NCBI GenBank assembly: GCA_965222525.1
Contig: OZ244955.1
Span: 640,140 to 704,139 of the forward strand
From: Rickettsiales bacterium
Lineage (GTDB): Bacteria; Pseudomonadota; Alphaproteobacteria; Rickettsiales; UBA8987
Length of the DNA stretch: 64,000 bases
Reading direction: 5' to 3'
Shown here: piece after piece, positions 4,373-54,121 of the stretch
Position numbering within the stretch: the first letter of the stretch is position 1
Layout of the letters: each line of letters starts with the position of its first letter
Translations under genes and position numbers: made by a program
The notes under the pieces: generated by a model
Databases searched by the model: none
The model's input: only the letters and a program-made list of their open reading frames with translations
Told to the model about the DNA's origin: nothing

Positions 4373-7300
4373 TTATCAGTTATCTCCATCACTTCCATAT
4401 TATTTGTCCACAATAACATGCAGGTTATCTGGTGGGTGGAGTAGATTTTTTCAAGCAGGGAACGGTAGGCGTTCATCTGGGAGATATATGCCCTAGGGAT
4501 TTTTGTGGGATTTTCGGGCGGGATAAGGTTGGTTTTATAGTCAATTATCAATACCTTATCATCGGTTACTATCAGCCTGTCGACCTGCCCTGATATAACC
4601 CTGTCACCGACAATACCCGATATTGGGACTTCTGCCTGCGAATTTACCCCGAAAATCTCAGCAAATTCAGGGTTATCAATAATATTGAACACTTCCTGTA
4701 TAATTTGCTGCTTGTCCGGGACTGCTATATCAGGAGCGTTCCTCTCGATAATCTCCTGTGCTGCTCCCTTGCGGGTTTCTGCCTCTATATCAGGTAATAT
4801 TTGCAGCAACAGGTGGATTAACCTGCCTCTCGAATAGGGATTATTGCGTTCCGTCGGGGAGATTCCTGCACTCTCCTCACCATCGGGCCGGGAAGGAGTT
4901 AGTGGTACAGCAATATCAGGTTCAGGTGCCGGTTCACATAAGGCAAATTCCGGCAGTTCAGGTGTTTCTGTCGTATCTGTAATATCCGTAACAACTTCCA
5001 CCGGACACCTCTGTTCAGAGCTAATCCGCAATATCCGCTCGTCACCATCATTAATAATATCGGCAATATCTACCAGATTTTCACAGATAATATTATACCA
5101 GCAATTTTTCGGTATATTCTTCTGTCCCTGCCAGCCGCAGATATATAACTCATCGGCTGCACGGGTCATCGCCACATAAAGCAGCCGCAGATACTCTTCA
5201 TACTGCGCCTGCCTTGCATCCTCCCGCAGATTTTCGCAATATCTGTTACGGTTCTCCGCCCCGCCCGTCCACAAAAACCCGCACTCCACATACCGCAATA
5301 CCTGCTTACGCAACACCGGCACCTGCGTTGTATCGGGCAGGAAAACTATCGGTGCCTGCAACCCCTTGGAGCCATGCACAGTCATTATCCGCACCTCATC
5401 CCTGCCATGCTCCATATCCCGCTTTATCACAGCCCCACCCGATTTTATCCATTGCAGAAAACCCTGCATCGAGGGTATATGAGTTGCTTCATATTGCGCT
5501 ATATAATTAAGAAACTCATCCAGTACATCTTCCACCTCATCACCAAGCCTTGCGATAAAATCCTTGCGCCCGCCCATAACCTCCAGCAGATAAGCATAAA
5601 ATTCCGAGGGCGGCATATAATCGGTTTTTGCAAGCAAACGGGATAGATAGTCATAAGCTTCTCCTGAATCCTCCCTAACCCGTTGCCACAGCGATTTCTG
5701 CCCACGATTATATGCAAGTTCAAATAACTCCTGCTCGGAAATGCCGATAAGCGGGGATTTCAATATGGTCGCAAGGGTTAAATCATCCTCCGGCAACAGC
5801 AGGAAATCACCAAGCGCAACCAGATCCATAATTGCTATATGCCGGGTAAGCGATAGCCTGTCCGTTCCGGCTACATTAATATTCTGCTCCTTGAGCGCCC
5901 GCATCATATGCTCGACAAATTCATCCCGCTTGCGTACCAGAATCATAATATCACCTTCGGTAGCCGCCCGTCCCTGTGACGGCAGAATACGCTTTTCATC
6001 CAGCCAACCCCTTATAGTAGCAGCGATTTTCCCCGCCAACACTGCCCTGCTGTTATCACTTTCCTTGCGCTCAAGCGGCAATTCCCAGGGAACAGGTTCC
6101 TCCTTTTCCTGCGAAGTGACAAGCGGCCATATCTCGACAATTCCCGCATCCTCGCTGCGATTTACATCATGCTTTATACTATCCTCGGTAACTGTAATCG
6201 CATCCAGAAGCTCACTATTGGAGAAAACCCTGTCTACGGCTTGCAGAACCGGTGCGGTAGAGCGAAAGGAGCGGTCAAGCAATACCGGCCGCCAGCTCTG
6301 TGCAAAAAACTGTTTCATCGCACCGAATACCGCCGGGTCGGCACCCTGAAAGCTGAATATAGACTGCTTTTCATCGCCTACTACAAAAAGCGTTCGCTTA
6401 ACTTCCCGCTTGCCCTCCCCGGCGAAAAAATCGGTGCATAAAGCCTCGATTATTGCCCATTGCTCAGGGCTGGTATCCTGTGCCTCATCAACAAGTATAT
6501 GGTCAATACCGTCATCCAGCTTGTACATAATCCACGGTGCTATATCAGGTCTGGTCAGGAGCCTGCGGGCAGCAGATATCAAATCGGTATAATCCAGAAA
6601 AGCACGGTTGGTCTTGAGATTACGATACAGTACCAGCAACTCCTCGGCGGTATGGACAAGGCTTGCAGTCAGGCCGGCTATATTAAGGGATTTGGTTTTA
6701 TCCAGAGTGGCAAGGATTCGCTCCTGCTCTGAGAGGATTGCAGACTCAACATCGGGATGACCTTCCAGCAGTTTCGCACGTACAACCCCGCCCGGCTTGC
6801 GCTTCTCATTTTTACCGGTCAGGAAAATACTGATATAGTCAGCAAAATACTGCTCCCCTCCCGGATTTTTCATATCATTGACAAGGCTCTTTATACGGGT
6901 GGACTTTTCCTTATCCTTCGTAGAACCGGACTGCAAAAGGCTTATAATCGGGCGCGGGGGGAAAATATTGGTAGCTTCAATAAATTCGGCAATTATTGAT
7001 TGTTTGCTCTCTTCCGGCCTAACTCCTAATTGCCGGTGAACCTTACCTACCAGCCCATCCGCTCCGTATTCACCCAGCAAATCTTCCAATATGCTGCGCT
7101 GTTCCATAATCTCATTCATGATACTGCGCAAAGTGGTGTCATGTGCAGCTTGTGCAAGATGGGCTATGCGGGTTGTGGTATCACTTGTCGATTGCGTACT
7201 GCCAAGCAGACGTAGCCATGCCTCCCTGATAAGCTCATGGGAAGTCTGCCCGTCAATCACCTGAAAATGCGGGATAATACCCGCCTCCAGCGGAAAGCGT

Positions 7301-7728
7301 TTCAAAAGCGACTGGCAGAATGAATGGATGGTCTGGATTTTCAAATCACCCGGATTATCCACCACATCCATAAACAGCCTGCGGGCGAGTGTCAGTATAT
7401 CCTTATCCGCAGGCACACCGGTCAGTTCCTCTATTTCCGATATGAGGCCAGCTTCATCCGAAATAGCCCAGCTTGCAAGCCGCCCATTTATCCGCTCCAC
7501 CATCTCGGCAGCAGCAGCATTGGTAAAGGTAAGGCAGAGGATTTTATTCGGAGCGGTTCCGGCCAGCATCAGCCGTAATACACGGTCAGTCAGAACCTTG
7601 GTCTTGCCGGTCCCGGCATTGGCCGAAACCCACACCGAATGCGCCGGATCCGCCGCCACTGCCTGCGGGTCAGTACCGATAGACTCATAATTTAAAGCAT
7701 TATAATTTTTTTCCAGTTCTGCATGCAT
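4369..7728 (-). CDS. addA: double-strand break repair helicase-nuclease AddA (UvrD/Rep helicase plus C-terminal PD-(D/E)XK nuclease)
   Basis: Walker A ANAGTGKTKVLT, helicase motifs (DEAQDTSP, VGDEKQSIFSFQGA, RIMTVHGSKGLQAP) and a C-terminal nuclease region (GQVDRLIV...IIDYKT). No addB is adjacent. Confidence 0.9.
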   Translation of the reverse strand: MHAELEKNYNALNYESIGTDPQAVAADPAHSVWVSANAGTGKTKVLTDRVLRLMLAGTAPNKILCLTFTNAAAAEMVERINGRLASWAISDEAGLISEIEELTGVPADKDILTLARRLFMDVVDNPGDLKIQTIHSFCQSLLKRFPLEAGIIPHFQVIDGQTSHELIREAWLRLLGSTQSTSDTTTRIAHLAQAAHDTTLRSIMNEIMEQRSILEDLLGEYGADGLVGKVHRQLGVRPEESKQSIIAEFIEATNIFPPRPIISLLQSGSTKDKEKSTRIKSLVNDMKNPGGEQYFADYISIFLTGKNEKRKPGGVVRAKLLEGHPDVESAILSEQERILATLDKTKSLNIAGLTASLVHTAEELLVLYRNLKTNRAFLDYTDLISAARRLLTRPDIAPWIMYKLDDGIDHILVDEAQDTSPEQWAIIEALCTDFFAGEGKREVKRTLFVVGDEKQSIFSFQGADPAVFGAMKQFFAQSWRPVLLDRSFRSTAPVLQAVDRVFSNSELLDAITVTEDSIKHDVNRSEDAGIVEIWPLVTSQEKEEPVPWELPLERKESDNSRAVLAGKIAATIRGWLDEKRILPSQGRAATEGDIMILVRKRDEFVEHMMRALKEQNINVAGTDRLSLTRHIAIMDLVALGDFLLLPEDDLTLATILKSPLIGISEQELFELAYNRGQKSLWQRVREDSGEAYDYLSRLLAKTDYMPPSEFYAYLLEVMGGRKDFIARLGDEVEDVLDEFLNYIAQYEATHIPSMQGFLQWIKSGGAVIKRDMEHGRDEVRIMTVHGSKGLQAPIVFLPDTTQVPVLRKQVLRYVECGFLWTGGAENRNRYCENLREDARQAQYEEYLRLLYVAMTRAADELYICGWQGQKNIPKNCWYNIICENLVDIADIINDGDERILRISSEQRCPVEVVTDITDTTETPELPEFALCEPAPEPDIAVPLTPSRPDGEESAGISPTERNNPYSRGRLIHLLLQILPDIEAETRKGAAQEIIERNAPDIAVPDKQQIIQEVFNIIDNPEFAEIFGVNSQAEVPISGIVGDRVISGQVDRLIVTDDKVLIIDYKTNLIPPENPTKIPRAYISQMNAYRSLLEKIYSTHQITCMLLWTNNMEVMEITDN

Positions 7729-7808
7729 GTCTTAGGTTACAGGTTGTAGGTTACAGGTTTAAGTTTTAATATATAATAACTAGGAATTTGGTCAAATCAC
7801 TTGTAACA

Positions 7809-8822
7809 ATGAAAAAACTTATAATCATATTGGTTACATTAACTTTGCAGGCCTGTTCCGGTGGCAGGCTGGCGGAGCCCGGGGATTTGATTGAAGCGGA
7901 GTGGGACAGGCTTGCAGAAATAATTGCAGAAGAGCAGGGGAAAGAGATATTGCAGCCCGAAGGAAGTATTCCGGAAAAAACGGAGGATAGCCCAGAGGTT
8001 TTCGACAGGATTGAAGAGGGTATTATAATAGAGGATAAGGAGGAAAAGCCTGCAACCGGCAATATAACCCCCCTTCCTGCAATAGTTGTAACTTCTCGGA
8101 AAATCGCAGCAGAACCGATAAACCAGGCACGTAAACATGTGGTATATTGGGGCTCAATACCGGTAGGGGAGCTGATTGCCGGTATAGAAACCGGGGAGGA
8201 TAAACATATATTCAAGGTGGCGATACGTTCTCGCAACCTGGCCAAGGTTGTAAGCAAATTCAGGAGCAACAGCAAAAGCGAGATACGCTATAATGGCAGG
8301 GGGAAATATACCCCGATATTGTGGGATACCAACTTCAGCCTGCGTAATAAAAAACGTACTATTAAGCTGGAATATTCCGATTCGGGGGAAGTTACCGGTG
8401 ATTACAACCAGCCTCCGGAGAAGCGCTGGAAACGCAAGGCGGTTGAGCAGAAACTCAAGGATGGTGCGTATGACCCGCTCACCATGGTTATGGTAGCCAG
8501 GCAGAAGGTCAGGGACAGCTTCAGGGGAGGCAAGCGGGAGTTTTCCCTGCCGCTGTATGATGGCCGCAGGCGGAGTAAATTTAACTTCAGGGTGCGTGGT
8601 ATTACTACCAATAAATTTATTCATGTCAGCGTTACTGAAACTGCGGTGGCCGGCTATACTGACAATGAACTGCGCCGTATGAAGGAGCGTGGTGCCGAGA
8701 TTCACCTCTATCTTTCCATCAAGGATTTCTGGCCGGTACAGGCTACCGGCAAATCCCTGCTCGGTACGGTGAAAGGGGTTATAGAAAAAACCTGTGATAG
8801 TTTCAACGAATGTCTTGAGTAG
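7809..8822 (+). CDS. lipoprotein, DUF3108-like
   Basis: MKKLIIILVTLTLQAC lipobox at the start chosen at 7809. The remainder resembles alphaproteobacterial DUF3108 proteins (recollection only, not searched). Confidence 0.5.
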   Translation: MKKLIIILVTLTLQACSGGRLAEPGDLIEAEWDRLAEIIAEEQGKEILQPEGSIPEKTEDSPEVFDRIEEGIIIEDKEEKPATGNITPLPAIVVTSRKIAAEPINQARKHVVYWGSIPVGELIAGIETGEDKHIFKVAIRSRNLAKVVSKFRSNSKSEIRYNGRGKYTPILWDTNFSLRNKKRTIKLEYSDSGEVTGDYNQPPEKRWKRKAVEQKLKDGAYDPLTMVMVARQKVRDSFRGGKREFSLPLYDGRRRSKFNFRVRGITTNKFIHVSVTETAVAGYTDNELRRMKERGAEIHLYLSIKDFWPVQATGKSLLGTVKGVIEKTCDSFNECLE

Positions 8823-18411: not shown

Positions 18412-18717
18412 GGGTAGGGTATTTTCAGCGTAACTGAAAGCAATTTAATAGGAATTTTTCATAACTGCAATATGTTACGGATAAATTTGCTGAAGCCAAC
18501 AGGCGATATATGGTATAATAACAGTAATTCAACCTGAAATATCTACCTGCCTACTGCTCCCCCGCTTTACAGGGGAGCAGATGAGACAAGGGCTTAAGCC
18601 CGCAGTCGAATCGCGGGGGGTAGTGAGTAAGTGGAAAATAGAAACAGGAATGAGTTAGCTTCTGTTCCAGTTTCTATTTTCCAGTTTCCACACCTCCCGC
18701 CAATTCGCCAAGATGAC

Positions 18718-20943: not shown

Positions 20944-21011
20944 TATATTGAGTGCTAAGTTCTGAGTCTCTGCTGTACCGTCTCAACACTTAACACTCAG
21001 CACTCAACACT
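20944..21011. repeat. intercistronic inverted repeat built from the GAGTGCTAAGT / GTGTTGAG word shared with repeat family B
   Basis: The sequence attgagtgctaagttctgagtc...caacacttaacactcagcactcaacac fills the whole gap between the NMO-like stop and the PelF-like start. The same words occur at about 45720-45770 and 51715-51780. Confidence 0.6.
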
Positions 21012-24297: not shown

Positions 24298-24387
24298 AAT
24301 TTTAGGTTGCAGGTTACAGGTTTTAGGTTACAGAAGGAGCCTGACCTGTTTATTATATGTTTTGATAGTAATGTGCAAGTTGTATGG

Positions 24388-37450: not shown

Positions 37451-37870
37451 CTACTTATTATCCGCTTCGGCGATGAAGGCATCGATCACCGACTGGGCTA
37501 TGTCAACCTCGCCCTGGGCGGCTTCCTTTTCCTTCTCGGTTTTTGCCTGCTGATGGAGCTTCTTGGTGGCCTCCAGACGCTTTTCCATGGCCTCTCTGGT
37601 ATGATTGGCAAAATCATAGGCCTCGGTAGCCAGTACCGTGCAGCGTTCATTGGTTATCTCGGCCACACCGCCGGCCACCAGATAGCGTGCCACTATCTCA
37701 TTGCCCTGATATGAGCGTATCACCCCCGGACGCAGATTGGATATCACCGGCGCATGTCCGGCCAGAACACCCATATCTCCCTCAGCCCCCGGCACAACCA
37801 CCATCTCCACCTCATCGGAGGAGAGAAGCTTCTCGGGTGTAACCAGGTCGAATTTTAATGACTGCGTCAT
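37451..37870 (-). CDS. atpC: F1 ATP synthase epsilon subunit
   Basis: LVTPEKLLSSDEVEMVVVPGAEGDMGVLAGHAPVISNLRPGVI is the epsilon beta-sandwich pattern. It is the last gene of the atp F1 set. Confidence 0.9.
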   Translation of the reverse strand: MTQSLKFDLVTPEKLLSSDEVEMVVVPGAEGDMGVLAGHAPVISNLRPGVIRSYQGNEIVARYLVAGGVAEITNERCTVLATEAYDFANHTREAMEKRLEATKKLHQQAKTEKEKEAAQGEVDIAQSVIDAFIAEADNK

Positions 37871-38335
37871 GATAATAGATGATAGATTATGGATGATAGA
37901 ATTAAATCTTTATTTTGCTTCGTAAATTTTGCAACATCCTTATTATAATTTCGTATTCATTATTCCAGTTATTAAAGGTTTTGGTATCTATATACCCCAA
38001 GTCAACACAATAGCACAACCAGATTTGCATTTCACTTGCGGAACCTATTGCTATGGAAATAAACCGCTTGAATTCTGCCTTTGAATGAGATTGTTTTACG
38101 AACCCCTCGGCCAGATTTGCACAAACAGACTTACTCGCCCTGCGCACCTGCTTGGCAAGGTCATACTGCTCTATCTGCGGAAATTCAAGACTTGCCTTAT
38201 GAATTTCCAGGGAGACAGCATAGGCTTTTTTAAAAACATCAAGGTCTCTTGCACTTTTAACCAGTCTTGAAGTTATATCCGTAACGTCTGCCATATTTTC
38301 CCCTCCATCATCCATCATCTATAATCCATCATCTG
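37871..38335 (-). mobile_element. IVS-like cassette 1: four-helix-bundle ORF bracketed by inverted repeats
   Basis: Arms at 37878-37899 (gatgatagattatggatgatag) and 38312-38333 (reverse complement gatgatggattatagatgatgg) match at 19 of 22 positions. All three differences are A/G. The cassette abuts the atpC start codon. Confidence 0.45.
37902..38294 (-). CDS. four-helix-bundle protein (23S rRNA intervening-sequence protein / Avd-like family)
   Basis: ARDLDVFKKAYAVSLEIHKASLEFPQIEQYDLAKQVRRASKSVCANLAEGF...AIGSASEMQIWLCYCVDLGYI matches the family pattern (F.vw..A..l...iy..t..fP..E.y.L..Q.rRAa.Si..NIAEG). The start is taken at MADVTD. The upstream MMDDGGEN is encoded by the repeat arm. Confidence 0.75.
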   Translation of the reverse strand: MADVTDITSRLVKSARDLDVFKKAYAVSLEIHKASLEFPQIEQYDLAKQVRRASKSVCANLAEGFVKQSHSKAEFKRFISIAIGSASEMQIWLCYCVDLGYIDTKTFNNWNNEYEIIIRMLQNLRSKIKI

Positions 38336-38360
38336 TTTATAGAACATATAATCGCCAGAT

Positions 38361-39872: not shown

Positions 39873-39901
39873 CTCAGCCAATTCCCTAGCTGTTTTTTCT
39901 C

Positions 39902-39932
39902 CTCTATCATCCATCATCTATAATCCATCATC
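39902..39932. repeat. third copy of the GATGATGGATTATAGATGATGG word, abutting the atpD stop
   Basis: ctctatcatccatcatctataatccatcatc is identical to 38303-38333 except at one base. It is inverted relative to 37878-37899. Confidence 0.8.
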
Positions 39933-39938
39933 CAGCAG

Positions 39939-41372
<1,434 letters not shown>

Positions 41373-41386
41373 TTACTCCTTGAAAA

Positions 41387-41857
41387 GAAACTGGAAACTG
41401 GAAATTAGAAACTGGAATTTAATTACTTTCTGTCTTTAATCTTACTTCTGAGATTTTGCAGCATCCTGGATACGATATTATATTCCTCAACCCACTTGTT
41501 ATGCTTGTTTTTATCGATATAACCGAGATCAAGGCAATATTTTATCCATATTTTCATCTCTCCGCATGAACCTATCGACATAGAAACGAATCGCCGAAAT
41601 TCCGGAGTAGAATGCACTTGCTTATAAAAACCTTCTGCTAAATTTGCGCATACAGACTTGCTAGCCCTGCGCATCTGTTTAGCAAGGTCATATTGTTCTA
41701 CCTGTGGAAATTTAAGGCTAGTTCTGTGAATGTCCAGAGAAACAGCGTATGCTCTTTTGAAAACTTCCAAATCCTGAGGCTCTCTGACGTAACTGGAGAT
41801 GCTCTCAACATTACCCTCTTCCATACTTCCGGCTTCTAGTTTCCAGTTTCCAGTTTC
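41387..41857 (-). mobile_element. IVS-like cassette 2: four-helix-bundle ORF bracketed by a 24 nt inverted repeat
   Basis: 41387-41410 is gaaactggaaactggaaattagaa. The reverse complement of 41834-41857 is gaaactggaaactggaaactagaa. They match at 23 of 24 positions. The unit is 471 bp. Confidence 0.55.
41423..41824 (-). CDS. four-helix-bundle protein (23S rRNA intervening-sequence protein / Avd-like family), paralog of 37902..38294
   Basis: PQDLEVFKRAYAVSLDIHRTSLKFPQVEQYDLAKQMRRASKSVCANLAEGF...SIGSCGEMKIWIKYCLDLGYI is roughly two-thirds identical by eye to the other copy. The start is taken at MEEGNV. The upstream METGNWKLEAGS is encoded by the repeat arm. Confidence 0.75.
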   Translation of the reverse strand: MEEGNVESISSYVREPQDLEVFKRAYAVSLDIHRTSLKFPQVEQYDLAKQMRRASKSVCANLAEGFYKQVHSTPEFRRFVSMSIGSCGEMKIWIKYCLDLGYIDKNKHNKWVEEYNIVSRMLQNLRSKIKDRK

Positions 41858-41865
41858 CATATTTA

Positions 41866-42600
41866 TTATCCTTTCTCCGCAACCACCATCAATGACACCC
41901 CGAATGGAAATCTTATCTTTCCTATAAAAAACCTCTCGCTGCCAAAAATTTTTATCAGCAGGCTGTTAACGAAATTTCCCGGCAGGGTCAGGTTCGATAC
42001 CTTGCTTTTTTTATTTCTGAATTTCTCCACCATCCTCACCAGTGCTATCGGTGGAAACAGCCAGAAATTAAAATAGCTGGCATATTTTATATTAAAGCCC
42101 TCCGCTTTTAGCAATCCGGTCAGTCCCGCCCTGTTGTAGCGACGGAAATGATGATGGTCCGTATCATGTGCCGACCATAAAAACTGAAATGCCGGAACGG
42201 TCAGGAAAATCATACCATTATCTTTTAGCTGCCCTTTCAGTACCTCCAGTGTTTTCTGGTCATGTTCTATATGCTCAAGCACATCAAATGCAACAATTAA
42301 ATCGAACTTTTTATCCGCAAATGCAGTATTATCAGGCAATTCGATAGATTCGACATTTTCAGCAACTCCTTTTTCCCTTGCCACCTGTCTTGCGGTTGCA
42401 TCATATTCCGCTGCATAAACCCTGCCATATTGCGACAGCATCTCCAGATTGCCGCCACTACCGCAGCCTACTTCCAGAATTTCCGCATCCTGCGGAAGCT
42501 GCAACCTGTCAAGCATACGCCTGATTATCTTCCTGCGGGCAACAAACCACCAGTGCCTGCCCTCCAGCTCCGCCATCTTTATGTAGGCCTCGCGCTCCAT
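41866..42600 (-). CDS. class I SAM-dependent methyltransferase
   Basis: HWWFVARRKII plus SAM motif I ILEVGCGSGGNLEML and a post-I acidic residue. A GGGGAG Shine-Dalgarno sequence lies 5 nt upstream. It sits between atpG and atpD on the same strand. Confidence 0.8.
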   Translation of the reverse strand: MEREAYIKMAELEGRHWWFVARRKIIRRMLDRLQLPQDAEILEVGCGSGGNLEMLSQYGRVYAAEYDATARQVAREKGVAENVESIELPDNTAFADKKFDLIVAFDVLEHIEHDQKTLEVLKGQLKDNGMIFLTVPAFQFLWSAHDTDHHHFRRYNRAGLTGLLKAEGFNIKYASYFNFWLFPPIALVRMVEKFRNKKSKVSNLTLPGNFVNSLLIKIFGSERFFIGKIRFPFGVSLMVVAEKG

Positions 42601-42622: not shown

Positions 42623-43525
42623 CTACAATGCCTCTGCGCCCGAGATGATCTCGGTCAGTTCGGTTGTAATAGCAGCCTGGCGGGTACGGTTATATTGCAG
42701 GGTTAAATCCTTTATCATCTCACCCGCATTGCGAGTGGCGTTATCCATCGCAGTCATCCGTGCCCCCTGCTCGCTTGCCGCATTCTCCAGCTGGGCGTGG
42801 AAAATCTGCACCGCAATATTTCTGGGCAGAAGCGCAGATAAAATCTCCTCCTCGCCAGGTTCATATTCATATACGGCGGCTACACCATCCTCGGCCTCTT
42901 CCGCAAGAACCCCATCCATCTCCAATGGAATCAATTGCTGGAAGGTTACTTTCTGGGTAAGTGCCGATTCAAACTTGTTATACACAACCGAGCAGGAATC
43001 AATATCACCAGCCTCAAACATGGTAATAACCTGATTCGCAACCGCTTCCGACTGCACATATTCCGGCTTTGCCTGACTGGAAGTATCTATACGTTCCGAC
43101 ACATTATTCTCATAACCATGTTTTAGCTGTTCCCAGCCTTTCTTACCGACTATCATCAGTCTGGCCAGCTTGCCCTTGCCTTCCATTTCGGTGATTTTCT
43201 GCTTTATCGCCCGCACCAGAGAACTGTTCAGCCCGCCGCAAAGCCCGCGGTCAGAAGTAACCGCTATAATCAGATGATTTTTATCGGCAATATCTCCCGC
43301 CGCATCACGCCTGCCCGAAAGAAGCGCAGGGGAATTTTCCGGATCAGCCTTGGTCGCCAGAGCCGCAAGCATACGCTCCATCTTTTCGGTATATGGCCGT
43401 GCCGCCTCCGCACGCTCCTGCGCACGCTTGAGCTTGCTCGCAGCCACCATCTTCATCGCCTTGGTGATTTTCTGCGTAGACTTAACACTACTTATACGGT
43501 TTTTCAGGTCCTTGAGATTTGCCAT
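42623..43525 (-). CDS. atpG: F1 ATP synthase gamma subunit
   Basis: MANLKDLKNRISSVKSTQKITKAMKMVAASKLKRAQ and the C-terminal QAAITTELTEIISGAEAL are gamma signatures. Confidence 0.93.
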   Translation of the reverse strand: MANLKDLKNRISSVKSTQKITKAMKMVAASKLKRAQERAEAARPYTEKMERMLAALATKADPENSPALLSGRRDAAGDIADKNHLIIAVTSDRGLCGGLNSSLVRAIKQKITEMEGKGKLARLMIVGKKGWEQLKHGYENNVSERIDTSSQAKPEYVQSEAVANQVITMFEAGDIDSCSVVYNKFESALTQKVTFQQLIPLEMDGVLAEEAEDGVAAVYEYEPGEEEILSALLPRNIAVQIFHAQLENAASEQGARMTAMDNATRNAGEMIKDLTLQYNRTRQAAITTELTEIISGAEAL

Positions 43526-43758
43526 CAGATATGTAGTTCCGTAGTCTGGTTGCTTTCCTCGTTAACTACCAAAAGGCTGGGTTCATCCTTACCTTTCAGT
43601 TGTTCATTAGCATTAAGCAACTCAATTCCATATATTTTCCCATCAGGAGACAGGTCAATATTCAACTCGCTACTGACCGATATGGTATCTACCATCCCGT
43701 CTTTCTCACGTAGTTTCATATACGCAATATTATGTTTTGGGTCGTATGTCAGTTTCAT
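43525..43758 (-). CDS. DUF2283-family protein (putative antitoxin partner)
   Basis: MKLTYDPKHNIAYMKLRE...DLSPDGKIYGIELLNANE fits the DUF2283 pattern (YD.E.D.LYI.L...D....G...GIEIL.AS). Its TGA overlaps the atpG ATG (TGATG). Confidence 0.65.
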   Translation of the reverse strand: MKLTYDPKHNIAYMKLREKDGMVDTISVSSELNIDLSPDGKIYGIELLNANEQLKGKDEPSLLVVNEESNQTTELHI

Positions 43759-43765
43759 CTTATCC

Positions 43766-44029
43766 TCAGAAGTATTTTACTATAACAGTGATAACCAGCC
43801 AATTTTCTTCCTCCTCTACTGCAAAAACCTCAAGCTGCTTATTATCATAAAACTTCCTGTTCCAGTGAGAGGAAAAATTAAAAGTTCTGCGGAAACCTAT
43901 TCTACCATACTTTGCAGAAAATTGCTCTCCATTTTCAACTGTAGATATAACCTCTTCTCTGGTTGCACCCCTTTCAACCATTCTTGCTTCAGCATGGGGA
44001 TGAAATTTCACATCCATGATTCTTTCCAT
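43766..44029 (-). CDS. DUF4258-family protein (putative toxin partner)
   Basis: FHPHAEARMVERGATREEVISTVENGE fits the DUF4258 N-terminal pattern (H...RM..R.I....V). Its ATG at 44029-44027 overlaps the atpA TGA (TGATG). Confidence 0.6.
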   Translation of the reverse strand: MERIMDVKFHPHAEARMVERGATREEVISTVENGEQFSAKYGRIGFRRTFNFSSHWNRKFYDNKQLEVFAVEEEENWLVITVIVKYF

Positions 44030-45564
44030 CAACTTTTCGCAAACACCTTAACAAATTTATCCAACGCGCTGCGGAGTTCCTTTTCGCTGTCTTCGGATAA
44101 TTTGCCTTCATTGCGGATTACATCCAGCAACCCCTGGTGTTTGCCATGCATTTCGCTCAGGAATTCCTTTTCAAAACGGGTTACATCCTTTGCATCTATA
44201 TCATCGAGATAACCATTTACACCGGCAAAGATGGAAACCACCTGCTCCTCCACCAGCAGCGGTGAATACTGGTCCTGCTTGAGCAGTTCCACCAGACGTG
44301 AACCGCGTGCCAGAAGTTTTTGCGTAGCCGCATCAAGGTCGGAGCCGAATTGTGCAAATGCCTCCATTTCACGGAACTGCGCCAGTTCCAGCTTAATCTT
44401 GCCTGCCACCTGTTTCATACCCTTGATTTGCGCTGCCGAACCTACCCTCGATACCGACAGTCCAACATTTACCGCCGGACGTACACCCTTATAAAACAGC
44501 TCGGTTTCAAGGAATATCTGGCCGTCGGTAATTGAAATCACATTAGTCGGGATATAGGCGGATACGTCACCGGCCTGGGTTTCGATAACCGGCAGGGCGG
44601 TAAGTGAACCGGCACCTTCTTCATCCGACATTTTAGCAGCCCGCTCAAGCAGCCGCGAGTGCACATAGAATACATCGCCCGGATAAGCCTCACGCCCCGG
44701 CGGACGGCGCAGCAATAGCGACATCTGACGATAGGCCACCGCATGTTTGGACAAATCATCATATGCAATCAGCGCATGCTTGCCGTTATCACGGAAATAC
44801 TCACCCATTGCACAGCCGGTATATGGTGCGAGGAACTGCAGCGGCGCCGATTCGGATGCGGTTGCGGCAACTATAATTGAATATTCAAGCGCACCTTCCT
44901 CCTCCAGCTTTTTGGCTATCTGCGCTACAGTCGAGCGCTTTTGCCCGATACACACATAGATACAGTAAAGTTTTTTACTTTCATCATCGCCTGCATTGAT
45001 GGATTTCTGGTTGAGGAATGTATCAAGAATCACGGCGGTCTTGCCGGTCTGACGGTCGCCGATAATCAACTCACGCTGGCCGCGCCCTACCGGAATCAGC
45101 CCGTCAATCGCCTTGATACCGGTCTGCACCGGCTCATGCACCGATTTACGTGCGATAATACCGGGAGCCTTTACCTCGATACGGGAACGGTTTTCGGTTA
45201 TCACCGGCCCCTTACCGTCGATAGGATTACCCAGCGCATCCACTACGCGGCCAAGCAGTTCGGGTCCTACCGGTACATCAACAATCCGGCCGGTACGCTT
45301 GACCGTATCGCCCTCCTTGATTTCCTTCTCGCCACCGAACAGCACTACCCCGACATTGTCCTCCTCGAGATTCAGCACCATCCCCACATTACCGCCGGGA
45401 AACTCCACCATCTCACCGGCCTGCACCTGGTCCAGCCCATATACGGTTGCAATACCGTCACCGACCGACACCACCTGCCCGATTTCTGCCAGTTCCGCCT
45501 CGGTTGAGAAATTGGCAATCTGCTTCTGCAAAATGCTTGATATTTCCGCTGCCTGAATTTGCAT
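44029..45564 (-). CDS. atpA: F1 ATP synthase alpha subunit
   Basis: [19 protein letters not shown] (P-loop) and [23 protein letters not shown]. Confidence 0.96.
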
Positions 45565-45617
45565 ATTATTCTCCTTTTATTACGTGTTTCTACCCGTTTT
45601 TCTTCGACTGTCGAGCG

Positions 45618-45842
45618 CCTCCCCCGCTTGCGGGGGAGGTAAGAAATTCTAGAAATCCATGTCCTCCGTAGCTTTAGCGCAGGAGGATTGATTTCAGAAT
45701 TTCTGGTGGGGGAATGTGTAAGTGTAAAGTGTTGAGTGCTAAGTCTCCTGCTGCAAACTCTCAGCACTTTAACCATTCCCTCCCCGAAAATCTGGCAATC
45801 AAAGATTGCTCAGATTTTCTCCCCTCCCGCAAGCGGGAGGGG
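45618..45842 (+). repeat. hairpin-terminated structured repeat family B, copy 1 (225 bp)
   Basis: Left terminus CCTCCCCCGC-TT-GCGGGGGAGG and right terminus CCCCTCCCGC-AA-GCGGGAGGGG are each perfect 10 bp hairpins. Internal hairpins include AGAAATTCT..GAATTTCT and GAAAATCTG..CAGATTTTC. It is collinear with 51643-51858. Confidence 0.85.
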
Positions 45843-45854
45843 TAGCTCCAGCTA

Positions 45855-46412
45855 TTACCCGGCTTTCTTCAAATAAACCTTTACCCTGTCCAGTTTTCCG
45901 CTCAGCGAGTCATCCAGCATTTGTGAGCCGATTTTTACAATCATCCCGCCGAGTATATCTTCGTCAAGCTTTTCCTCAACAGCCACTTCCTTGCCGGTCA
46001 TTTCTTTAAGTTCATTACCTATGCGGGTTATATCTGCCTTATCAAGCTTGTTTGCAACCGTAATTTCCGCCTGAACCTCCCCGCGCGCATTTGCAGCAAG
46101 CTCGGAGAAAGACGCACATATATCCGGCAAAAGCGATAACCTGCGGTTTTCCCCCAGTAATGCACAAAACTGGCCAATCAGTTTATCCGCCTTGATTTTC
46201 TTTACAATATCACCAATAGCAGCAGAAAGCTCTGACCTGGAAGTAGTCGGATTGCTCAAGGTTTTCTGTAATTCCTGCGATGACGCAATCACCGAATCAA
46301 GTTCATTTAATCCGGCTTCGATTTCTTCCAGCTTTCCCCCGGCCTTGCCAATCTCGAACAGCGCCTTTGCATAACGCCTGCCCAATACCAATTTCCCGAC
46401 TTTCCTTGCCAT
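45855..46412 (-). CDS. atpH: F1 ATP synthase delta subunit (OSCP)
   Basis: GRRYAKALFEIGKAGGKLEEIEAGLNEL... and the C-terminal GGMIVKIGSQMLDDSLSGKL fit the delta/OSCP pattern. It is the first gene of the F1 operon. Confidence 0.85.
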   Translation of the reverse strand: MARKVGKLVLGRRYAKALFEIGKAGGKLEEIEAGLNELDSVIASSQELQKTLSNPTTSRSELSAAIGDIVKKIKADKLIGQFCALLGENRRLSLLPDICASFSELAANARGEVQAEITVANKLDKADITRIGNELKEMTGKEVAVEEKLDEDILGGMIVKIGSQMLDDSLSGKLDRVKVYLKKAG

Positions 46413-46553: not shown

Positions 46554-46611
46554 ATCTGGCGTGACACGACAATAACTCACCAGACTCCAGACTCTAATCA
46601 CCAGCCACTAA

Positions 46612-50012: not shown

Positions 50013-50127
50013 GATTTTCTCCTCGTTTTTGTGCTCGGTGTTCAGTGTACGGTGTACGGAATACCAGCATAAAAACCCGAACACTGATAACAGAACACCG
50101 AACACCATAATACCCCTTTTCCGGTGA

Positions 50128-54019: not shown

Positions 54020-54121
54020 AAGGGAGAAAATAACACAGGGGCGCACGGTTGGCTACTGGTATTTAGCCATGGTCATTATGACCATTCACTAGACTCTAGA
54101 CTCCAGATTCTAACCACTCAA

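Follow-up and report, generated by a model that had tools for sequence, protein, structure and literature searches.

We analysed a 64,000-nucleotide stretch of a Rickettsiales bacterium genome (contig OZ244955.1, positions 640,140 to 704,139, forward strand; hereafter the window) and focused on a short element of its atp operon, in which two inverted repeat arms enclose a single open reading frame (ORF) of the 23S rRNA intervening-sequence (IVS) protein family. We refer to this element as cassette A. An earlier annotation made from the letters of the window, the sequence-only reading, had placed it between a methyltransferase gene and atpD, and both genes flank it as described:

42623-43525, minus strand: atpG (F1 gamma subunit), upstream of the methyltransferase gene and cassette A
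41866-42600, minus strand: S-adenosylmethionine-dependent methyltransferase gene, inserted between atpG and cassette A, without an inverted repeat of its own
41387-41859, minus strand: whole of cassette A
41827-41859, minus strand: 5' arm, made of tandem heptamers, which reads GGAAACUGGAAACUGGAAACUAGAAGCCGGAA on the transcribed strand
41423-41860, minus strand: ORF of PF05635/TIGR02436, 145 amino acids (aa) from the ATG at 41860 and 133 aa from Met13 at 41824
41387-41417, minus strand: 3' arm (UUCCAGUUUCUAAUUUCCAGUUUCCAGUUUC)
39939-41369, minus strand: atpD (F1 beta subunit), downstream of cassette A

The arms had been reported as two 24-nt repeats and we recovered both: 41387-41410 reads GAAACTGGAAACTGGAAATTAGAA, the reverse complement of 41834-41857 reads GAAACTGGAAACTGGAAACTAGAA, and the two are identical at 23 of 24 positions. 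The repeat finder widened them to 41387-41417 and 41827-41857 (31 nt each, 28/31 or 90% complementary, with 409 nt between them). To the earlier description we add that the arms are tandem heptamers with the unit GAAACTG, i.e. (GAAACTG)n, with a period of 7 in Tandem Repeats Finder. The 5' arm begins 6-8 nt past the stop codon of the methyltransferase gene (41866-41868). Between the 3' arm and the atpD ATG at 41369 lies a spacer of 17 nt with the Shine-Dalgarno (SD) sequence of atpD, AAGGAG (41376-41381). The empty atpG/atpD and atpD/atpC junctions of relatives (loci L084 and L009, see below) are SD spacers of 15-17 nt, so cassette A fits precisely into the gap between the stop codon of the gene before it and the native spacer.

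The ungapped inverted-repeat score of cassette A was 23.5, compared with 8.2 +/- 1.15 (99th percentile 11) for 400 pairs of segments with equal geometry placed at random in the window. Among the 14 genes of the atp region, inverted repeats flank only the PF05635 ORFs, that of cassette A and that of a second cassette described below (23.5 and 17.5, respectively), and all the remaining genes scored 7.5 or less. The 14-mer GAAACTGGAAACTG, allowing up to 2 mismatches, was found 7 times in the window, while 0.32 matches were expected and no shuffle reached 7; all 7 matches were confined to the two arms of cassette A and to one hairpin at 18668-18688.

The proposal that the arms would form a stem in the RNA agreed with structure prediction: the terminal stem was present in both the minimum free energy (MFE) and the centroid structures of the transcribed-strand RNA (41375-41870, minus strand; -139.9 kcal/mol, z = -3.95), with a predicted length of ~31-35 bp and an A/U-rich composition. 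Cassette A thus has the terminal inverted repeats with a long closing stem that define IVSs, but not their location in helix 9, 25 or 45 of 23S rRNA, since it lies in the spacer between the methyltransferase gene and atpD. The Rfam scan of the window returned no match at gathering score, which places the cassette outside any 23S helix.

The ORF was correctly assigned to the IVS protein family, with hidden Markov model (HMM) matches to PF05635 (2e-30, 105.6 bits, cutoff 33.8) and TIGR02436 (7.5e-28, 96.9 bits, cutoff 24). The AlphaFold model (mean predicted local distance difference test, pLDDT, 88.7) is a four-helix bundle with four long helices. Its top Foldseek matches were 2GSC (TM-score 0.79/0.9) and 2RLD, followed by the Avd proteins of diversity-generating retroelements (DGR), and phmmer matched the protein to 2GSC at 4e-11. 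The match to Avd in PHROG was weak (1.9e-6), and the Avd equivalog model NF033474 gave 18.2 bits against a cutoff of 80. The genes within ~5 kb encode atp subunits, toxin-antitoxin-like proteins, a methyltransferase and unknowns, with no reverse transcriptase (RT) among them, and no template or variable repeats were seen among the examined neighbours. We therefore rejected a DGR assignment, as the protein falls short of the Avd model and no RT is nearby. An assignment to a defence system was also rejected, given that neither PF05635 ORF of the window matched a PADLOC model; the methyltransferase alone weakly matched mad2.

The first 12 codons of the longest cassette A ORF overlap the 5' arm and encode the N-terminus METGNWKLEAGS; judging from the alignment with paralogues, the true start may be Met13 (41824). 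N-termini such as METGNWKLE in the cassette A protein, or MTEDRK in many rRNA-IVS proteins, are encoded by the repeat arm and represent an annotation artefact, so the start-codon calls in the PF05635 IVS family are unreliable. We also observed that long (GGAAACT)n arrays translate to pseudo-ORFs, e.g. METGNWKLEIGNWKLE (L161, metagenome contig Ga0265292_1000395, ~7950-8400).

Cassette A is not unique, and this corrects the earlier description, as the window holds a second cassette (cassette B) at the other end of atpD:

37871-38333, minus strand: whole of cassette B, between atpD (plus an inserted segment) and atpC
38304-38333, minus strand: 5' arm, (GAUGAUG/GAUUAUA)n, with a heptamer unlike that of cassette A and a like position relative to the ORF
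37902-38318, minus strand: ORF, PF05635 at 8e-32, with an annotated 130-aa form that starts at 38294
37871-37900, minus strand: 3' arm, abutting the start codon of atpC (37870) without a separate SD
39903-39934, minus strand: second copy of the 5' arm and SD region, 4 nt past the atpD stop codon

The arms of cassette B (38304-38333 and 37871-37900) are inverted (GATGATG/GATTATA)n arrays with an inverted-repeat score of 17.5, and the MFE and centroid structures of its RNA both include the terminal stem. The two cassettes share 66% protein identity and 65% DNA identity in a codon alignment, with dN (nonsynonymous divergence) of 0.26 and saturated synonymous sites. These values indicate an old split, and by the pattern of substitutions the PF05635 protein is under purifying selection. 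Despite the old split, each cassette retains complementary arms, and the arms of the two are of unrelated sequence.

The outer copy of the cassette B 5' arm (39903-39934) pairs with 37871-37900 slightly better than the inner copy (score 20 and 17.5, respectively). The duplication itself (38304-38345 and 39895-39934) comprises 27 exact nt, or ~41 nt with 2 mismatches. The 1.57-kb segment between the duplicated arms contains three ORFs: one encodes a BrnA-like antitoxin, starts inside the heptamer array (MMDDRGEK) and was seen without a BrnT partner, and the other two are 228 and 124 aa long. The arrangement resembles an insertion into, or a recombination within, the heptamer array.

The atp region is encoded entirely by the minus strand and runs in the order atpH, atpA, DUF4258/DUF2283 pair, atpG, methyltransferase gene, cassette A, atpD, BrnA-like ORF, 228-aa ORF, 124-aa ORF, second PF05635 ORF and atpC. 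The remaining features of the region were:

45855-46412, minus strand: atpH
44029-45564, minus strand: atpA
43525-44032, minus strand: DUF4258/DUF2283 pair, toxin-antitoxin-like, between atpA and atpG
37451-37870, minus strand: atpC

We detected nothing resembling a terminator on the operon strand between atpH and atpC, so the region can reasonably be taken as a single transcription unit, and the promoter search on that strand returned only weak 9/12 promoter-like matches, near the shuffle expectation. The methyltransferase and DUF4258/DUF2283 inserts have start and stop codons that overlap or abut the atp genes, and no inverted repeats. The spacer between atpH and atpA (45565-45854, ~290 nt) is unusually long and holds a pair of GC-rich hairpins (CCCCTCCCGCTTGCGGGAGGGG and CCTCCCCCGCAAGCGGGGGAGG), along with a short heptamer-array-like stretch. 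The GC content of the window is 47.6%, and its atp proteins are up to 86% identical to those of Alphaproteobacteria loci in metagenome-assembled genomes; together with the gene order atpHAGDC, these identities suggest an alphaproteobacterial host.

Relatives in 23S rRNA genes and in core mRNA operons

The protein search retrieved 799 relatives at E <= 1e-10, and a scan of species representatives (one genome per species) confirmed 454 relatives; the locus counts below cover the best 80. The kinship with rRNA IVSs put forward from sequence alone was borne out, as most of the closest relatives are encoded within real 23S rRNA genes and share the arm-ORF-arm layout. In particular, the protein P0005 is 64% identical to the cassette A protein and has two coding copies on a 2.2-Mb contig, both of them within 23S rRNA genes. 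Its host large subunit rRNA, as delimited with Rfam, spans 4785-8157 (3373 nt, compared with the 2925-nt model), and the ORF is on the rRNA strand. The arms are 35 nt long, 91% complementary and made of (CAGAAGA/CAGAGGA)n heptamers, with the ATG within the 5' arm. Cassette A is homologous to elements located in 23S rRNA genes, and this homology extends to the arms.

BLAST searches with the two halves of the P0005-bearing 23S gene located ~66 of the 80 relatives inside 23S genes, all on the rRNA strand. Most insertions were ~1.2 kb into the gene and three were at ~0.55 kb, which by their coordinates alone correspond to the helix-45 and helix-25 regions. Inverted arms of 25-45 nt were present at the ORF ends in nearly all of the 80 loci, and the best internal period was 7 in almost all of them. 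Heptamer-array stems are a family-wide trait of these IVSs, a pattern that we did not find in the open-access literature searched. In the IVS of Coxiella, the arm contains tandem GACAGAT heptamers and RNase III cuts mid-stem in vitro (PMC4990558); cutting of rRNA IVS stems by RNase III is also reported for Leptospira, Salmonella and alphaproteobacteria in the literature cited there.

The other group of relatives was found in mRNA operons of other Alphaproteobacteria: 13 of the 80 loci had no rRNA within 4 kb. Non-rRNA loci were placed by ORF calls, Pfam and four further look-ups, as follows:

between atpG and atpD: L009, L085
between atpA and atpG: L077
between atpD and atpC: L008, L083, L084
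between sucC and sucD: L006, L007, L010
between coxB and coxA (COX2 and COX1): L016
between rpoB and rpoC: L086-L089
upstream of fmt: L033, L064
in front of a 1124-aa ORF: L022

The ORFs of the operon-located relatives have the orientation of the flanking genes. In most copies, 0-9 nt separate the upstream stop codon from the 5' arm. Past the 3' arm come the SD and ATG of the next gene, at a distance of 0-25 nt from arm to start codon; in cassette B and L008 the 3' arm abuts the ATG without a separate SD. Clear inverted repeats (scores 14-31) were present in 12 of the 18 non-rRNA copies. Across the 18 copies, arms paired with their own partners at a mean score of 16.2 and with the arms of other copies at 8.1, with exceptions only within related groups. 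The arm sequences are therefore idiosyncratic, each pair being complementary. Our search of the open-access literature turned up no account of an IVS module in an mRNA operon; given that limit, this absence is weak evidence.

Related genomes also had other ORFs in intercistronic spacers. We observed a GIY-YIG ORF between mdh and sucC (L006/L007, 2460-2789), a divergent PF05635 ORF between atpA and atpG with no room for arms (L008, 566-946), and an armless PF05635 ORF between rpoB and rpoC that was present on 21 contigs (L086, 5001-5465).

Heptamer arrays outside the cassettes

The arm sequence was also searched on its own. The exact 25-mer GGAAACTGGAAACTGGAAAYTAGAA was found in 90 metagenome stretches, and the figures given here come from 80 of the 90. 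None of the 80 was in rRNA. An inverted partner was present in ~41, of which ~36 were short ORF-less hairpins with loops of 13-240 nt; some of these occupy the gap from a stop codon to the SD and ATG of the gene that follows (L134, L146). Of the ~41, one was a single very long heptamer array (L161) and another was ambiguous (L130). ORF-sized loops were found in three paired stretches (437, 512 and 772 nt), and all three encode PF05635 proteins (1e-20 to 4e-35) that are just 36-44% identical to the subfamily query set. The association between heptamer hairpin and PF05635 therefore holds in both directions.

The sequence-only reading had allowed that the arm word might be a ubiquitous simple repeat with no preferential pairing around these ORFs. 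The first part of this holds, as heptamer arrays are common in the window and (GGAAACT)n is widespread in metagenomes, but the second does not: pairing is specific to PF05635 ORFs, and the three ORF-sized loops lie in unrelated contigs. A chance inverted repeat beside an ordinary gene, in a genome rich in heptamer repeats, is for these reasons effectively refuted. Such a coincidence would be helped by the enrichment of period 7 in the window (7 arrays, compared with 0-1 at each of periods 5, 6, 8 and 9) and by the common metagenome arrays; however, it does not account for a score far outside the random placements, for flanking repeats restricted to PF05635 ORFs, or for a layout that recurs in ~70 independent relatives and in every ORF-sized locus recovered from the arm sequence.

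Within the window, an ORF-less hairpin with arms of the cassette A sequence family (TGGAAACTGGAAAATAGAAACTGGAA) was located:

18629-18690: ORF-less hairpin, loop ~9-12 nt, z = -5.4

This hairpin is an ORF-less copy. It is 23 kb from cassette A, in a divergent region upstream of a type IV pilin-like gene, and small GC-rich hairpins lie just upstream of it (~18556-18620). Two more ORF-less inverted-heptamer hairpins, at 50036-50106 (CGGTGTT/CAGTGTA units) and ~20945-21011 (CTCAACA/CTTAACA units), lie between co-directional genes of the minus strand, e.g. downstream of trpE, with z of ~-4.4 and ~-4.6, respectively. Finally, solitary tandem heptamer arrays were observed at 7733-7759, 24304-24333, 46580-46594 and 54089-54112. 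The arrays at 7733 and 24304 (AGGTTAC units) adjoin the start codons of minus-strand genes, a UvrD/PD-(D/E)XK helicase-nuclease gene and lgt, and in this they resemble the start-codon-adjacent TAACTGA repeats of Beggiatoaceae and Cyanobacteria (PMC4679880).

The arrays could, in principle, serve the control of translation or act in 5' untranslated regions (5'-UTRs) rather than as cleavage sites: the 3' array would serve the downstream gene, in the manner of the TAACTGA direct repeats that precede start codons in Beggiatoaceae, Cyanobacteria and Bacteroidetes, and the pairing of this array with the 5' array would sequester the start of the cassette ORF and tune its expression without any cleavage. 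The short distance from 3' arms to start codons, down to the abutting ATGs of cassette B and L008, fits this proposal, as do the two solitary arrays that abut start codons, the candidate ORF start codons at both ends of the 5' arm, and the heptamers beside start codons that have been described and left unexplained (PMC4679880). We nevertheless consider it quite improbable, as arms of this type are also found in 23S rRNA, which has no downstream gene in need of translation, the AAGGAG of cassette A is normal and lies outside the arm, and the units of the window cassettes differ from TAACTGA.

Movement between sites and proposed fate of the transcript

Movement between rRNA and non-rRNA sites was observed in closely related copies, and it directly supports the suggestion that cassette A might be a mobile IVS captured outside rRNA. 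L014, which is outside rRNA, and L017, which is at the ~0.55-kb site of a 23S gene in another genome, are ~91-93% identical, and the homology spans the 5' heptamer array, the ORF and the 3' array and stops at the outer arm edges (dN/dS = 0.12, dS = 0.33). The 5' array has at least 16 units in L014 (3880-4010) and ~5 in L017 (3968-4007); the 3' array of the pair, (TTTCCGA)n, pairs with (TCAGAAA/TCTGAAA)n with one mismatch per heptamer. L022 and L040 represent a weaker version of the same pattern. Copies between sucC and sucD (L006/L010) and between coxB and coxA (L016) are 81% identical, including octamer arms, at different junctions of different genomes. In the neighbour-joining (NJ) tree (~113 columns, no bootstrap), cassette A grouped with cassette B, other operon copies were nearby, and rRNA copies were interleaved (L039; L014/L017; L022/L040); given the limits of the tree, we rely only on the close pairs confirmed at the DNA level.

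Based on these results, we favour with moderate confidence the reading that cassette A is an element of the rRNA-IVS family that was relocated into an mRNA operon, where it is co-transcribed and forms a stem of ~31-35 bp that is a plausible RNase III substrate. The family is characterised by a PF05635 four-helix-bundle ORF that lacks a promoter and is enclosed by inverted tandem-heptamer arrays. Cassette A would be transcribed within the atp polycistronic RNA, and its arms would pair and close the ORF off in the 409-nt loop. RNase III would then cut the stem, as in rRNA IVSs, and free the ORF-bearing RNA. The same cut would divide the transcript in two, with atpHAG (plus methyltransferase) on one side and atpD(C) on the other, and the ribosome-binding site of atpD would stay free. 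The element may persist since it would be nearly neutral at such sites, with its own expression dependent on strong host transcription.

Several observations weigh against this reading. The overall fold of the cassette B RNA is unremarkable (z only -1.39). Arms are weak or absent in 6 of the 18 non-rRNA copies (L009, L077, L064, L084, L085, L086), i.e. in about one third of the operon copies, so the ORF can persist in an operon without the stem. In the arms, G.U and A.C mismatches on the sense strand numbered 51 and 45 in true rRNA IVSs, and 9 and 18 in non-rRNA copies; this strand comparison gave no signal of RNA-level selection, even in the true rRNA IVSs. Arrays and hairpins of (GGAAACT)n are also widespread where there is no ORF, so the arms may exist independently of it. 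Template switching between the arms at the DNA level could maintain their complementarity without any RNA function, and the cleavage of the cassette A stem by RNase III is proposed by analogy.

These points lead to the most serious alternative, in which the arms are the DNA-level terminal inverted repeat (TIR) or hairpin of a small non-autonomous element, similar to miniature inverted-repeat transposable elements (MITEs), that serves insertion, excision or recombination. Slippage and template switching during replication would keep the arms complementary, and the RNA stem and its cleavage would be incidental. The exact end of homology at the outer arm edges agrees with this, and so do the ORF-less hairpins with cassette-A-type arms in the window and in many metagenome contigs, the change of array length by whole heptamers between L014 and L017, the 1.57-kb segment between the two cassette B 5' arms, an arrangement reminiscent of recombination at the array, and the lack of sense-strand bias in the mismatch comparison. 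We still judge this alternative unlikely. No transposase or recombinase was present among the neighbours of the cassettes, no target-site duplication was visible at the 14 junction pairs inspected, and the widely differing arm sequences argue against sequence-specific recognition by one enzyme. All the 66 rRNA copies and the listed operon copies are co-oriented with the host transcript, which points to a dependence on transcription, and the stem is known to act as RNA in rRNA (PMC4990558). A classical MITE or insertion sequence was accordingly rejected, for want of a target-site duplication, a conserved TIR and a nearby transposase; with ORF-less hairpin derivatives present, the resemblance to MITEs is one of behaviour only.

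Beyond the relocated-IVS reading of cassette A, one may speculate that IVS elements, with or without a PF05635 ORF, form a widespread and unrecognised class of mobile intercistronic elements that move between rRNA helices and heavily transcribed operons, that the PF05635 pentamer may bind the heptamer duplex or work with RNase III or with an RT in trans, for spread or arm maintenance, and that the start-codon heptamer arrays of many bacteria are footprints of such elements. We offer these three statements tentatively, and it is doubtful that they would all hold together.

Significance and comparison with known systems

IVSs were found in 23S rRNA in 1990, and their mobility, their origin and the role of the conserved ORF are standing questions (PMC4990558). 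The full arm-ORF-arm module lives in mRNA operons too, and not in rRNA alone. With close copies in the rRNA of one genome and outside the rRNA of another, IVS mobility becomes a testable statement. Intercistronic spacers are, in addition, non-essential and genetically tractable sites at which excision, the part played by RNase III and the PF05635 protein could be studied. Our results also suggest where intercistronic RNA processing sites of core operons such as atp, suc, cox and rpoBC could come from, and how the heptamer repeats of Beggiatoaceae and Cyanobacteria may have arisen.

The closest known systems are the 23S IVSs with an S23p/PF05635 ORF, such as those of Coxiella burnetii (helix 45) and Leptospira. 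Cassette A shares with them a unit of ~430-470 nt with terminal repeats of ~28-35 bp, heptamers in the arm upstream of the ORF, an ORF start in or next to the 5' arm, a protein of the same family (up to 64-69% identity), the absence of a promoter of its own and co-orientation with the host transcript. The 23S IVSs, however, sit in a helix of 23S rRNA, whereas cassette A lies between protein genes of an mRNA operon, so that its excision would sever a polycistronic mRNA where that of a 23S IVS fragments rRNA. The heptamer unit is GAAACTG or GATGATA in the window cassettes and of the NCAGRRN type in 23S IVSs. Finally, RNase III cleavage is documented in 23S IVSs, whereas for cassette A we infer it.

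Among chromosomal PF05635/TIGR02436 genes outside rRNA, XCC0516 (PDB 2GSC) and BT_0352 (PDB 2RLD) share the HMM family and the predicted fold with cassette A. Genes of this type are treated as ordinary stand-alone genes in the literature searched, whereas cassette A keeps the full arm-ORF-arm module and has a precise intercistronic position. The Avd protein of the Bordetella phage DGR (PDB 4DWL, 8UB7) shares the four-helix fold with the cassette A protein (TM-score ~0.7-0.85).

With regard to intercistronic processing, the early mRNA of phage T7 has RNase III stems between its cistrons, and their cleavage yields separate mRNAs. The hairpins of T7 are short and local, have internal loops and are not mobile, whereas in cassette A a 409-nt loop with an ORF is closed by repeat arrays. 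The 5'-UTR of hmw1A in H. influenzae has a transcribed heptamer array that is one arm of a long mRNA hairpin and an RNase III substrate, and changes in repeat number depend on transcription, the hairpin and RNase III (PMC12721329). Unlike cassette A, it is a 5'-UTR element of one adhesin gene, its right arm is G-rich and not made of inverted heptamers, it has no ORF in the loop and it is not dispersed.

Tandem 7-nt intergenic units, as in the cassette arms, also form the TAACTGA repeats of Beggiatoaceae, Cyanobacteria and Bacteroidetes, which often end just before a start codon (PMC4679880), and the short tandemly repeated repetitive (STRR) sequences of Cyanobacteria. In the literature searched, no link of TAACTGA-type repeats to IVSs or to PF05635 was reported. 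TAACTGA is the reverse complement of TCAGTTA, the unit of several 23S IVS arms (L019, L072). The TAACTGA arrays are mostly direct and unpaired (one inverted case per 170), whereas the arrays of the cassettes are inverted pairs around an ORF.

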